In this document: positions 1,829 through 8,867 of the stretch, one piece after another
Numbering within the stretch: position 1 is the first letter of the stretch
How the letters are laid out: every line of letters begins with the position of its first letter
Source of the DNA: a plasmid
Direction: 5' to 3' (one strand)
NCBI RefSeq assembly: GCF_054482525.1
Contig: NZ_JBTHVG010000003.1
DNA: 64,000 nt
Program-made: the position numbers and the translations under genes
The notes under the pieces: model-generated
The model's database searches: none
What the model was told of the DNA's origin: nothing
The model's input: the letters and a program-made list of their open reading frames with translations, nothing else

Positions 1829-1912
1829 TGTCGGCCAGACGTGGCCCTGATGATTCTTGCCCTTTGTACAGGAAGTGATTAAGTGTACTGGGGTCAGTTT
1901 GGATATCGAAAA

Positions 1913-4900
1913 TTATTGTACGTTAAGGTTATTTTTTGACCTGCCTAATTTAGCTGGCCTCAGCCGACGAAACTTACCGGCTGACGGTATCCGGTTGCTT
2001 TTCCATATATAATCGCCTGTCAGATTGATGTGTTCCCAGCCTAGCGGGGACAAATGCGACAGTAGTTGCTCGTTGATCTTCACTCCCTTACGCTTCAGAG
2101 CATCGACAGCTCTTTCCATATAGACGGTATTCCACAGGGATATGGCAGCTGTCAGGAGCGTCAGTCCACTGGCGCGATAGCTCTGATTTTCCGGTTTTCG
2201 GTCCCTGATTTCTCCCAGCCGGTGCATAAATACCGCTCGCGCCAGCGCGTTACGGGCTTCACCTTTATTCAGCCCCGCCTGTACCCGCCGACGCAGTGCA
2301 GGATCGCGGAACCAGTCGAGCATAAACAGAGTTCGTTCAATACGGCCAATTTCTCTCAGTGCTTTGGCCAGCCCGTTTTGCTTGGGGTAGCTGGCAAGCT
2401 TTTTCAGCATCAGGGATGCCGTCACGGTTCCCTGCTTTATCGAGGTTGCCAGACGCAGCACTTCACGCCAGTGAATTTCGATCTCTTTCAGATTCAGGCT
2501 GGTTGTTGATATCAGTGACTGAAGCGCCGGGTACTGGCCTGCTTTCCCTTTGATAAATAGCTTCTTGTCGTGGAGATTCCTGATTCGCGGACAGAACGCA
2601 AATCCCAGCAGATGCATCAGGGCAAAGACATGATCGGTGAAACCCGCTGTATCGGTGTAATGCTCCCTGATTTCCAGGTCGCTTTCGTGGTACAGCAAGC
2701 CATCGAGCACATGGGTTGAATCTCTGACCCGACTGATTATGCAGGTGTAAAACGGGCTGTATTGATCCGAAATATGGGTATAAAACTGACGTCCGGGCTC
2801 CTGCCCGTATTTCGGGTTAACCTGCCCTGCGTAGCGGCCTGATCTGCCTGTTCTGAAATTCTGTCCATCTGATGATGATGTTGTCCCGTCTCCCCAGAAT
2901 GCCGCCAGCGGCCTTTTCCCCTGCGCGTTTACCAGCTCTGCAAGGGCTGCTGAATAGGTTTCGTCGCGGATGTACCATGCCTGAATATCTTCGAGTGATG
3001 ATTTGGTGCTACCGGGGCAGGCTTCCGCCATTTTGGTCAGGCCAAGATTGATGCCATCCGCAAGAATGGTGGTGAGAAGCAGGCGGATATCGGGACGGGT
3101 AATGTCAGTTTTTATATGCGAAAAATGTCGGGTAAACGTCGTCCAGCTGTTTACCTCATCGAGAATTTCCGTGATTTTAGGGCGCGGTAGCATGCTGTAA
3201 ACCAGCTCTGCCAGCGGTGAAACCTGCACCGGAACGCTGTTATCCAGCGGAGAGACTTTTACGCCCCTGTAAGATATTTCCACATCGGGCAGTTCACCAA
3301 GGGCAGCCATGGCATTGACCTCTTCAAGCCTGGACTGAAGCAGGGTCATACGGCTGGTAATGTACTCATGATAATCAGCAGATACGGGAAGTGGCAGCGC
3401 CGGTGTGAGTTTGTCAAAGTCCTTTTCGGGAATGAGGTAATCATCAAAATTTTTGTAGCGGCGTGAACCTTTGACCCAGATGTCCCCGGAACGCAACGCC
3501 CCCTTAAGCTCGCTGAGCGCACAAAATTCATAGTACTGCCGGTCAATACCCGCAGGTGTAATTACCACCTTGCGCCAACTTTCTGGGACAAACTCAAGCG
3601 GCGCGGTGGCCGGAACTTTACGTGACTGCTTCCGGTACATATCCTTGATCACAACCAGCGCATCAGCCAGAGGTTGCGCTGCCGGAGTTGCGATTAACTG
3701 TAAAGCTGACAACATGCGCGGGGCATATTTCCGTAATGTGCTGTATTTCTCGGTAATAATATGCAGCGGGTCAAAATTATTTTTTCTGGCGAGATGGCGT
3801 GTTTCCTCCAGACTGGCGACAAATTCAGGCCATGGGAGTATGTTTTCTATTGCGAGCCATGGATCTCCCCCGGAATCACGGGCATCAGACAGCGCCTGAC
3901 CGACATTGATGTACTGCCTCAGTTTTGACTGGATCAGCTTTCCGGTCTGCTGAAGGCGCTCAGCCTGTGTTCTTTTGGCTTTGCTGAAAAGGCTGTTCAG
4001 CATTCGCTCATGCAACTCAATCACTTCGTCTGTCAGTGTGGCTCTGGCTTCTTCCAGCACGCACACCAGGATCGCATGACGCCGGGCTGCTGAAAATCGG
4101 GTCAAATCCCGGCTGCTCATCTTTCGGCCTTCCCGCGCCAGTTTCAGCAACCGGTTCTGGTGAATGGTACGATCTATACCTTCCGGTAATGCCAGCGATT
4201 CAATGCTACTGAGCCGATCAAGGTGTTGCAGCACGTTCTTACCATTGATTTTACCCGGAGGTTGCAGAAGCCATGTCAGCCTGGAAGACTGATTATCCGA
4301 TGACTCAAGTAAACAATCCAGAGCATCCCTGTGAGCCGGAGTTAACGGGGCATTCAGGGTCTGAAACACGATTTTATCGCCGCCTGCCATGGCCTCAGCA
4401 CAGGAACGCTCCACGACATCAATCGAGGGGATTATCACGTTGTTCTGCCGGAGCCAGACCAGTAGTTCTTCGGCCAGGAGAATACCTTTATCGGTGCGCG
4501 TCGCCATCGGCAGCAGGTGTGTAATACAGTCCTGCTGTATTTTGCCGGTGAACGCTTTTAAGCCAAGATAGCGGTACAGTTCGGTTAAATGTTCGCGTCG
4601 CGTAGTTTCCCTGCCGGAAAGGTAAGCTGGCCAGAGATCCCCGGTAAGTTTTAGCCTGCTGGCGATATGCTTCAGCAGCGCATCAGAGGGAGGGATTTTT
4701 TTATCCGGGGTAAAGCCGACATTTTTCAGATAGCAAAGAAGGACGGCAAAACCAAAACGGCTGGCAGGTTTACGGTGGGCACTGATAAGTGCCAGATCAT
4801 GTTCACTGAAATACGCCATCCGGGTCAGCGTTAACTCTTCGTCCGGTAATGCCAGTAATGATTCTCTTTCCGACAGAGAAAGAATCTGCCTCCTTGCCAT
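1913..4900 (-). CDS. tnpA: Tn3-family transposase TnpA
   Basis: 995-aa ORF, typical Tn3-family transposase length and N-terminus; stop codon lies inside the terminal IR. Confidence 0.9.
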   Translation of the reverse strand: MARRQILSLSERESLLALPDEELTLTRMAYFSEHDLALISAHRKPASRFGFAVLLCYLKNVGFTPDKKIPPSDALLKHIASRLKLTGDLWPAYLSGRETTRREHLTELYRYLGLKAFTGKIQQDCITHLLPMATRTDKGILLAEELLVWLRQNNVIIPSIDVVERSCAEAMAGGDKIVFQTLNAPLTPAHRDALDCLLESSDNQSSRLTWLLQPPGKINGKNVLQHLDRLSSIESLALPEGIDRTIHQNRLLKLAREGRKMSSRDLTRFSAARRHAILVCVLEEARATLTDEVIELHERMLNSLFSKAKRTQAERLQQTGKLIQSKLRQYINVGQALSDARDSGGDPWLAIENILPWPEFVASLEETRHLARKNNFDPLHIITEKYSTLRKYAPRMLSALQLIATPAAQPLADALVVIKDMYRKQSRKVPATAPLEFVPESWRKVVITPAGIDRQYYEFCALSELKGALRSGDIWVKGSRRYKNFDDYLIPEKDFDKLTPALPLPVSADYHEYITSRMTLLQSRLEEVNAMAALGELPDVEISYRGVKVSPLDNSVPVQVSPLAELVYSMLPRPKITEILDEVNSWTTFTRHFSHIKTDITRPDIRLLLTTILADGINLGLTKMAEACPGSTKSSLEDIQAWYIRDETYSAALAELVNAQGKRPLAAFWGDGTTSSSDGQNFRTGRSGRYAGQVNPKYGQEPGRQFYTHISDQYSPFYTCIISRVRDSTHVLDGLLYHESDLEIREHYTDTAGFTDHVFALMHLLGFAFCPRIRNLHDKKLFIKGKAGQYPALQSLISTTSLNLKEIEIHWREVLRLATSIKQGTVTASLMLKKLASYPKQNGLAKALREIGRIERTLFMLDWFRDPALRRRVQAGLNKGEARNALARAVFMHRLGEIRDRKPENQSYRASGLTLLTAAISLWNTVYMERAVDALKRKGVKINEQLLSHLSPLGWEHINLTGDYIWKSNRIPSAGKFRRLRPAKLGRSKNNLNVQ

Positions 4901-5067
4901 ATAGTTTCCCTCGTAAATTATCCGATGCGGTATTTTTAACAGAAATGCTTATCGCATAAGGGTACACCCTGACGCCATATTCAAAACGTGACGGCACACG
5001 ATGAATGACATAACCTATATGCGATAGATTAAATGCAATAACTTAAATGCGATAACGTGGTGGAAAA
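4901..5067. promoter_or_regulatory. res site and divergent tnpA/tnpR promoter region
   Basis: AT-rich 167-bp spacer between divergent tnpA and tnpR with repeated ATGCGATA-like motifs; position-based inference. Confidence 0.45.
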
Positions 5068-5703
5068 ATGTTCATCAGAGCTTATTTAAGGGCATCGACG
5101 GAAGATCAGTTCGCAGATCGGGCAAAAGAGATGCTGGAGCAGTTTGTTCAGGAGCGGGGACATAAAATAGCCAGTTACTACCGGGAGAACATCAGCGGTA
5201 CAAAACTTGACCGCCCGGAACTGGGGCGCTTACTGATGGACAGTCACCGCAATGATATTTTACTGGTCGAGCAGATAGACCGTCTGACCCGTCTGAGCAA
5301 CAGCGACTGGATGACTCTGAAAAAGCAAATCGAGCAACACGAGCTGCGGATTGTCAGCCTCGATGTACCCACCTCATGGCAGGCGCTGTCAGATAAAGAT
5401 CCTTCGCAGGCTGACCCAATCACCCGCGCCGTGATAACCGCCATCAATAATATGCTTATCGACCTGATGGCCGCGATGTCGCATAAGGACTGGCTGAGCC
5501 GCCGCCATCGGCAGAAGCAGGGAATTGAACGGGCACATACGCTGGGAAAATACCGGGGCAAACAGGCCGATCAGGAACGACATAAGAAAGTTCTGTATTA
5601 CCGACAGGTCAAGAAACTGAGCATAAGAGAAACTGCTGAAGCCACCGGTTACAGCACATCTCAGGTCTGCAGGATTCAGGCCCTGTTCAGGCCTGAAAAT
5701 TAA
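5068..5703 (+). CDS. tnpR: serine recombinase resolvase TnpR
   Basis: 211-aa ORF; resolvase-like N-terminus (RASTEDQ serine motif region) and C-terminal HTH. Confidence 0.85.
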   Translation: MFIRAYLRASTEDQFADRAKEMLEQFVQERGHKIASYYRENISGTKLDRPELGRLLMDSHRNDILLVEQIDRLTRLSNSDWMTLKKQIEQHELRIVSLDVPTSWQALSDKDPSQADPITRAVITAINNMLIDLMAAMSHKDWLSRRHRQKQGIERAHTLGKYRGKQADQERHKKVLYYRQVKKLSIRETAEATGYSTSQVCRIQALFRPEN

Positions 5704-5730
5704 GCACATTTTCTGAGGCTGGAAATCAAC

Positions 5731-8180: not shown

Positions 8181-8210
8181 ATGTAAATTATCCTCAATGT
8201 GATGGCTTAG

Positions 8211-8486
8211 CTATTTAAGATAGGCGCGAACCAGTTCAATCGTATCGTCAACGGATTTACTGATTTCATGGCTGTAGCTGTCATTCTGGTCAAAGGTTTC
8301 CCGTATGTGGCTCTCGAGCACCTCTGCCATAAGACCGTTAGCTGCTCCGCGAACGGCAGCTATCTGCTGAAGAATGGAACGGCATTCAGCACCATTTTCC
8401 AGCGCTCTTTCCAGAGCATCAATCTGACCCCGAATACGGCGAACACGGGTAAGGACCTTTTTTTTCTCTTCAGGAGTACTGGGCAT
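8211..8486 (-). CDS. frmR: formaldehyde-responsive repressor FrmR (CsoR/RcnR family)
   Basis: 91-aa ORF with CsoR/RcnR-like helical sequence, first gene of the frm operon. Confidence 0.85.
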
Positions 8487-8510
8487 TATTTACCTCACCA
8501 TTTTTGATTT

Positions 8511-8575
8511 TATATACTATAGTGGAGTATATAATTATTATCAATGCATACTCCACTACAGTATAACTAAGAATA
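8511..8575. promoter_or_regulatory. frmR promoter/operator palindrome
   Basis: Inverted repeat CTATAGTGGAGTAT ... ATACTCCACTACAG immediately upstream of frmR. Confidence 0.5.
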
Positions 8576-8867
8576 AACATAACTACCTTTATTTGCGATA
8601 TAAATCATATATTTATATTATTTTTGGCTGTGATACTGTCGGAAGGAAAGTTACTACAAAAATGATATCTACCGATACGGGATTTGCGGCATAGGCGGTT
8701 CTGTTAAATTTCGCCAGATATTGGCTCATCATTGATGGTCAAAAAATGAGCCTAACGTACAATAATTTTCGATATCCAAACTGACCCCGTACTGAGCGTT
8801 CAGAGAACATTATCTTCCTTACATACCCATAGAACAGCTTTCTAAGAACGGTGGGCTCGCCTGAAAA

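Follow-up and report, generated by a model that had tools for sequence, protein, structure and literature searches.

A copy of transposon Tn6901 (Tn6399a) with a formaldehyde-detoxification operon inside a DpdC-like gene of an IncHI2 plasmid

The stretch of plasmid DNA analyzed here, a window of 64,000 nucleotides from contig NZ_JBTHVG010000003.1 (RefSeq assembly GCF_054482525.1), carries at positions 1890-8788 what is very probably a complete copy of the Tn3-family transposon Tn6901 (= Tn6399a), transposed by its own TnpA into an IncHI2 plasmid, 22 nt inside a backbone gene for a DpdC-like protein. The element is already known under these names, and the insertion is a new location for it. The element, its formaldehyde-detoxification (frm) cargo and the predicted phenotype have all been described before, and the present data leave the existing picture of transposition and formaldehyde sensing unchanged. 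The one substantive correction to an earlier reading of the same DNA (hereafter the original prediction) concerns the site, in that a DpdC-like backbone gene is disrupted, as opposed to a harmless placement between genes.

The outer limits of the element are defined by its terminal inverted repeats and by the short duplication that flanks them. Between the two copies of the duplication it measures 6,899 bp. The left inverted repeat (IRL; 1890-1927, plus strand) is 38 bp long, reads GGGGTCAG...ACGTTAAG and has the stop codon of tnpA inside it, and the right one (IRR; 8751-8788, minus strand) is of the same length. When IRL is aligned with the reverse complement of IRR, the first 36 nt are identical and 37 of the 38 positions agree, the sole mismatch being at position 37 (A versus G), which is the single difference that the original prediction had given; the likeness extends to 52 nt, with 49 of 52 positions identical. 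A 36-nt pattern of the inverted repeat, allowing at most 3 mismatches, occurs exactly twice in the window and not at all in 100 shuffles. The sequence GTACT directly abuts the outer edge of each inverted repeat, at 1885-1889 on the left and 8789-8793 on the right, so the identical flanks also named in the original prediction were found, and it is present as a single copy in plasmids with the empty site. The G+C content is 50% in the element and 40-43% in the flanks. With inverted repeats of about 38 bp that start with GGGG, a large DDE transposase and a 5-bp duplication, the element is a Tn3-family unit transposon, and its description as intact is borne out by the inverted repeats, the catalytic residues of TnpA, TnpR and the six open frames, all of which are present.

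The search for an uninterrupted site, proposed as a check in the original prediction, was decisive. The query consisted of the 600 bp on the left, ending in GTACT, joined to the first 600 bp beyond the right-hand copy of GTACT. The empty site reconstructed in this way matched the listed Escherichia and Salmonella plasmids with 100% identity across 1200 bp, and it is held undivided by 888 plasmids, which also include plasmids from Enterobacter, Klebsiella and other genera; the uninterrupted site has one GTACT only, and the example that was looked at is an IncHI2A conjugative plasmid. The homology of the element to other plasmids spans the first to the last base of the inverted repeats and stops there. 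Some 220 plasmids contain 80% or more of the element, those listed being 99.9% identical to it, and the two other copies with clean duplications that were examined are bordered by other 5-bp sequences, TTATA in p160070-catA and TACCG in pBK31551. Because the boundaries lie exactly at the tips of the inverted repeats and the duplications differ, the unit has transposed repeatedly and independently. The left junction of the present insertion gave no match in 72,556 PLSDB plasmids, in 5,426 complete E. coli genomes or in the GTDB representative genomes, and its absence from these three collections suggests that this insertion is rare or recent.

The same window contains an IS26-rich mosaic at 20.6-44 kb, a sign of frequent rearrangement, and the element might accordingly be thought to have entered by homologous recombination or by an IS26-mediated rearrangement with another plasmid, and not by its own transposition. 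We consider such an origin extremely unlikely, because the boundaries are exactly the tips of the inverted repeats, the 5-bp duplication is perfect, the uninterrupted backbone matches both flanks with 100% identity, and no IS26 or other repeat adjoins the element. By the mechanism established for this family, TnpA binds the 38-bp inverted repeats, the 3' ends of which it joins to target DNA that is cut with a stagger of 5 bp; a cointegrate arises by replication and is resolved by the serine resolvase TnpR at the res site between the divergent tnpA and tnpR genes, and the end product is a simple insertion with a 5-bp duplication, here GTACT.

With regard to the target, the original prediction held that the element sits in a non-coding spacer and leaves the gene on its left (1241-1828, with a TTG start) unaffected. 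However, in the empty-site plasmids RefSeq annotates this left-hand gene as a 221-aa coding sequence (CDS; WP_000490638.1), the ATG of which (window positions 8810-8808, minus strand) lies on the right-hand side of the insertion. Reading on from the in-frame TAA that ends the upstream 126-aa gene, this ATG is the first start codon met, and AAGGAAG (at about 8816-8822) precedes it at a spacing of 5 nt, whereas no Shine-Dalgarno-like sequence was seen, on reading the sequence, ahead of the only other candidate start, TTG 1828 (codon 27). The alignments with plasmid homologues (37-59% identity) begin at residues 1-8 of the 221-aa protein, and the PADLOC DpdC profile PDLC02818 matches residues 6-218 (E-value 4.1e-59; profile positions 3-233 of 319), so that residue 6 already corresponds to position 3 of the profile. 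At the occupied site, on the other hand, the reading frame runs into a TAA inside IRL and contains no start codon before TTG 1828. Taken together, the RefSeq start, the AAGGAAG sequence and the alignments of homologues and profile show that the insertion is genic and not intergenic: it falls after nucleotide 22 of the CDS and splits off the ribosome-binding site and seven codons. The orphaned 5' stub, including the start codon, occupies 8789-8810 (minus strand), and the body of the gene (1241-1889, minus strand; DUF6884/DpdC-like) is now without promoter, ribosome-binding site and start codon. A placement between genes would fit the mechanical list of open reading frames (ORFs), which contains a 195-aa ORF from TTG 1828, and also the fact that the Pfam DUF6884 domain, spanning residues 50-175, is itself uncut, but set against the start-site and alignment evidence it is very unlikely. 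The distance of about 140 bp between the neighboring genes that the original prediction calculated for a plasmid relieved of the element is arithmetically right for the ORFs that it used (about 135 bp), but the one at 1241-1828 is the remnant of a longer gene.

The DpdC-like gene is probably inactivated by the insertion, which may also be polar on the downstream genes at 726-1181 and 448-684. Another possibility is that these downstream genes are transcribed by read-through from tnpA, which points in the same direction. Between tnpA and the truncated gene, the minus strand has no predicted terminator, which leaves room for such read-through; across the terminator scan, terminator-like sites were no more numerous than in shuffled sequence. 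At 221 aa the split gene compares with about 300-320 positions in DpdC profiles, and five neighboring ORFs (126, 151, 78, 276, and 430 aa), which were the ones covered by the PADLOC scan, gave no Dpd matches; the split gene thus looks like an orphan DpdC-like gene. The NCBIfam search of the flanking genes returned no matches. Homologues of the split gene were seen on about 3,000 plasmids, and one GenBank record names a homologue "tgtA5 cluster protein 2".

The original prediction had left the element unrecognized as a named transposon, whereas it is 99.74% identical to the copy of Tn6901/Tn6399a in Rts1 (NC_003905/AP004237). The name Tn6901 was derived from its length of 6,901 bp in pBK31551 (PMC4551976), and the later names are Tn6399a, for which the Rts1 copy is the reference, and Tn6399b for the form interrupted by IS1618 (PMC6339943). 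The Rts1 copy is exactly 6,901 bp long; between it and the window element there are 16 substitutions and one 2-bp indel, as compared with 22 substitutions and the same 2-bp indel for the copy in pBK31551 (NC_019888). The window element and the Rts1 copy share their inverted repeats, their size and the order tnpA, putative res, tnpR, fghA, VOC, frmA, frmR, and their VOC, FrmA and FrmR proteins are identical. They are unlike in length (6,899 versus 6,901 bp) and in a TnpA substitution, D775N, that is private to the window copy. The spacer that separates the VOC gene from fghA (6568-6630) contains a hairpin with a 12-bp stem (6585-6613) and, at 6574, a 2-bp deletion, which is the only respect in which the window copy differs in length from those of Rts1 and pBK31551. 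The pBK31551 copy, representing Tn6399b, has a 1,365-bp IS1618 within its IRL, which is missing from the window copy. The window copy is also set apart from the other Tn6901/Tn6399 copies by its insertion site in the IncHI2 dpdC-like gene, an insertion that was not found in PLSDB, the complete E. coli genomes or the GTDB representatives. The paper describing Tn7489, from Pantoea, equates it with Tn6901/Tn6399 (bioRxiv 10.1101/2022.09.12.507718). Its cargo of frmR, frmA, gloA, and frmB, for which formaldehyde resistance was predicted (bioRxiv 10.1101/2022.09.12.507718), is that of the window element, and the type of transposon is also the same. On the other hand, the structures in R471, Rts1 and others are 90-96% identical to Tn7489 in nucleotide sequence (bioRxiv 10.1101/2022.09.12.507718), and the tnpA of Tn7489 is a pseudogene cut by a Tn512-like element, whereas that of the window is intact.

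From left to right the element consists of IRL, tnpA, a 167-bp spacer, tnpR, fghA/frmB, the VOC gene, frmA, frmR, about 260 bp of non-coding DNA, and IRR; all six frames are free of internal stops and equal in length to the frames annotated in other copies. The tnpA gene (1913-4900, minus strand) encodes a 995-aa Tn3-family DDE transposase that scores 1126.6 bits against NF033527 (cut-off 500; the cut-offs used for TnpA and, below, for FrmR, FrmA, and FrmB are NCBIfam equivalog cut-offs). Its residues D678, D750, and E881 align opposite the catalytic D679, D751, and E881 of Tn4430 (PDB 7QD4/7QD8). The tnpR gene (5068-5703, plus strand) encodes a 211-aa serine resolvase (PF00239, 4.6e-20) with a C-terminal helix-turn-helix, the catalytic Ser10 of which lies within YLRAST; the matches to the structures of Sin/Bin3 and gamma-delta resolvase are weak, in keeping with a distant relation. 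By analogy with Tn3, the spacer between the divergent tnpA and tnpR genes (4901-5067), identical to that of the Rts1 copy, would contain res and divergent promoters, a prediction suggested by its position and its repeats. It holds five ATGCGATA-like 8-mers, at 4925(+), 4950(-), 5019(+), 5033(+), and 5047(+), of which those at 4925 and 4950 form an inverted pair and those at 5019, 5033, and 5047 are direct copies in 14-bp steps; an estimate from base frequencies gives about 0.13 such copies as the chance expectation for 167 bp. Taken with what is generally known of the family, this architecture is like that of Tn3 and gamma-delta (Tn1000): the 38-bp inverted repeats of the window element start with GGGG and end with ACGTTAAG, there is a 5-bp duplication, tnpA and tnpR are divergent with the putative res between them, and the passenger genes lie between tnpR and IRR. 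The differences are that the window TnpR is distant from gamma-delta resolvase (E ~4e-4), that the cargo is frm and not bla as in Tn3, and that the three-subsite res of Tn3 appears to be laid out differently from the repeats of the putative res in the window.

The private substitution in TnpA bears on whether this particular copy can still move. At position 2578, the first base of codon 775, the window has T, compared with C in Rts1, pBK31551, and p160070-catA, which changes this codon from Asp to Asn within the motif PRIRDL, 25 residues past the catalytic D750. The window allele was found in none of the 608 PLSDB plasmids that carry the 61-bp segment around it, and most of the family representatives (114 of 146) have Asp at this position. 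Such a distribution could point to a dead relic, i.e. a copy that has transposed in the past but is now immobile by itself through a change in the conserved PRIRDL motif. However, Asn is the second commonest residue at position 775 (19 of 146, or 13%, with 13 representatives having other residues), and the group with Asn includes full-length transposases of 986-1008 aa, whereas the catalytic D750 is kept in 142 of 143 representatives. The inverted repeats, the catalytic triad and TnpR are otherwise intact, and even a defective copy could still be mobilized in trans by a sibling with the same inverted repeats. We therefore regard an immobile relic as improbable. Since Asn occurs naturally at position 775 in the family, D775N is a caveat and not evidence of inactivation; the comparison suggests that it is probably tolerated, and the element would be expected to be mobile at present. 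A catalytic knock-out by D775N was rejected, as the alignment with Tn4430 puts the catalytic Asp at D750 and Asn-775 is natural in the family.

The cargo is predicted to be a self-regulating operon for glutathione-dependent formaldehyde detoxification, made up of frmR, frmA, the VOC gene, and frmB, all on the minus strand. The frmR gene (8211-8486) encodes a 91-aa formaldehyde-responsive repressor (NF008464, 180.8 bits; cut-off 133), frmA (7071-8180) a 369-aa S-(hydroxymethyl)glutathione dehydrogenase of the class III alcohol dehydrogenases (TIGR02818, 741.5 bits; cut-off 544), and frmB, also called fghA (5731-6567), a 278-aa S-formylglutathione hydrolase (TIGR02821, 400.1 bits; cut-off 281.7). 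The original prediction of a complete frm operon therefore stood as far as these three genes are concerned but made no mention of the fourth, a VOC/glyoxalase-fold gene (6631-7029) with a product of 132 aa (PF00903, 1.1e-6), which is called gloA in the literature and annotated as WP_008813494.1 in other copies. The PHROGs search left both the VOC gene and the genes flanking the element without a functional annotation, two flanking ORFs matching only families of unknown or unrelated function, and an Rfam scan of window positions 1-12000 found no known RNA family.

The control region of the operon closely resembles that of the chromosomal frmRAB operon of E. coli. The frm promoter and operator lie at 8514-8564 (minus strand), where a sigma-70-like promoter, TTGATA-17-TATAGT at 8544-8516, matches at 10 of 12 positions and is the best sigma-70 match of the region upstream of frmR. 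Two predicted FrmR sites of the form ATAC-N9-GTAT, at 8564-8548 and 8530-8514, together make an inverted repeat that is matched at 17 of 18 positions, and the proximal one overlaps the -10 element. In E. coli, the frm promoter (Pfrm) has tandem ATAC/GTAT sites that make a larger inverted repeat (PMC5146963), and the promoter of the transposon aligns with this chromosomal Pfrm site for site. The FrmR operator palindrome of the original prediction is thus present, as a predicted operator homologous to Pfrm. FrmR senses formaldehyde through a methylene bridge between Pro2 and Cys35 (PMC5146963), and the FrmR of the transposon keeps Pro2, Cys35, and His60. In the proposed mechanism, FrmR tetramers would bind the two ATAC-N9-GTAT sites that overlap the promoter, and formaldehyde would cross-link Pro2 to Cys35 and so free FrmR from the DNA; FrmA would then oxidize S-hydroxymethylglutathione, and FrmB would hydrolyze S-formylglutathione to formate. 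The regulator, the enzymes and the operator architecture are all shared with E. coli, FrmR being 90%, FrmA 95% and FrmB 79% identical to the chromosomal proteins, and DNA homology of about 81% starts exactly at the distal FrmR site. The two operons differ in that the transposon adds the VOC gene between frmA and frmB, has less G/C-rich central tracts in its operator, and spaces its -35 and -10 elements by 17 bp as compared with 15 bp. The 17-bp spacing is optimal and, judging from the promoter sequence, could give higher derepressed expression from the mobile copy.

By analogy with characterized strains, the element would be expected to confer resistance to formaldehyde. A cluster of the same four genes, the glyoxalase-fold gene among them, occurs on pAsaXII of Aeromonas salmonicida, where, unlike in the window element, there is no transposase and the cluster is flanked by inverted repeats only (PMC5736529). 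The minimal inhibitory concentration (MIC) of formaldehyde for the Aeromonas strain with pAsaXII is 4-fold above that for strains without the cluster (PMC5736529), i.e. 0.01% with the plasmid versus 0.0025% without it (PMC5736529). These values were the only phenotypic data that the literature yielded.

Nothing that we found contradicts the identification, to which four caveats apply. The support for the phenotype is indirect, as the MIC values compare Aeromonas strains with and without pAsaXII (PMC5736529). The flanks of the Rts1 reference copy are non-identical (ATTAA and ATGAA). The private D775N calls for reserve about the present activity of TnpA, and the putative res has been assigned from its position and repeats.

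The transposition module of the element has relatives with other cargos or none. Tn5403, TnEc1, and their siblings have a related tnpA-res-tnpR module, and in relatives whose tnpA-tnpR region is about 89-92% identical in nucleotide sequence, the homology ends about 17 nt before the stop codon of tnpR. The inverted repeats of TnEc1 have been reported as near-identical (bioRxiv 10.1101/2022.09.12.507718). Unlike the window element, Tn5403 is without resistance genes (PMC5142620) and TnEc1 has no cargo (bioRxiv 10.1101/2022.09.12.507718), whereas the cargo of other siblings includes, for example, a LysR regulator, an alpha/beta hydrolase and a glutathione-independent formaldehyde dehydrogenase. 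It seems, from these sequences, that the transposon lineage has picked up two different formaldehyde-detoxification routes. One such sibling was seen in NZ_CP110143.1 (retrieved stretch 223-9882), with a tnpA-tnpR module about 92% identical to that of the window; genes for a LysR regulator, an alpha/beta hydrolase and a glutathione-independent formaldehyde dehydrogenase adjoin its tnpR in place of frmRAB.

The same sibling shares an interruption with pBK31551. In both, IS1618, an IS110-family element with an identical transposase (WP_000156887.1), lies at the same spot about 31 nt into IRL (L004:6486-7880 in the stretch retrieved for pBK31551 and L006:223-1536 in that for NZ_CP110143.1). The tnpA-tnpR modules of these two IS1618-bearing copies are about 8% apart in nucleotide sequence, and the presence of the IS at the same IRL spot in such diverged copies suggests that IS1618 targets this inverted repeat. 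Some other IS110-family elements target the inverted repeats of Tn21-type transposons.

Two other IncHI2 plasmids were observed to have elements with the identical 38-bp inverted repeat and different cargo near the present site, with the repeats located at L007:9542-9579 and L008:9958-9995 of retrieved stretches. In pQC07_1 of Serratia the insertion is 291 bp away (window position about 9084), within the 126-aa gene, and genes for AhpD, AraC, MFS, and oxidoreductase proteins are among the cargo. In p58011 of Salmonella it is about 700 bp away (window position about 9500), and the genes beside the inverted repeat include ars, GNAT, alcohol dehydrogenase, alpha/beta hydrolase, and LysR genes. 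With the window, this makes three independent insertions with three different cargos. That about 0.7 kb of IncHI2 backbone around the dpdC-like gene forms a preferred landing pad for transposons with this inverted repeat is a doubtful proposition; alternatively, the insertions may be a neutral by-product of a preference for AT-rich targets. The knock-out of the DpdC-like gene, or tnpA read-through into the downstream backbone genes, might also itself be selected.

With this insertion, a module predicted to give tolerance to formaldehyde, a biocide, has moved onto a conjugative IncHI2 multidrug-resistance plasmid, although its practical meaning is modest. Because the plasmid already carries blaCTX-M, oqxAB, sul1, dfrA12, aadA, and aph(3')-Ia, aldehyde disinfectants could co-select for the plasmid. 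The genes in question, aadA, dfrA12, aph(3')-Ia, blaCTX-M, sul1, and oqxAB, lie in the IS26-rich multiresistance mosaic, at about 20600-44000 of the window, where a recurring 240-aa antisense ORF points to seven IS26 copies. The mosaic also holds two truncated fragments of Tn3-family tnpA genes (20604-22193 and 33353-34660), and beyond it come backbone genes, among them umuC and a traH-like gene.

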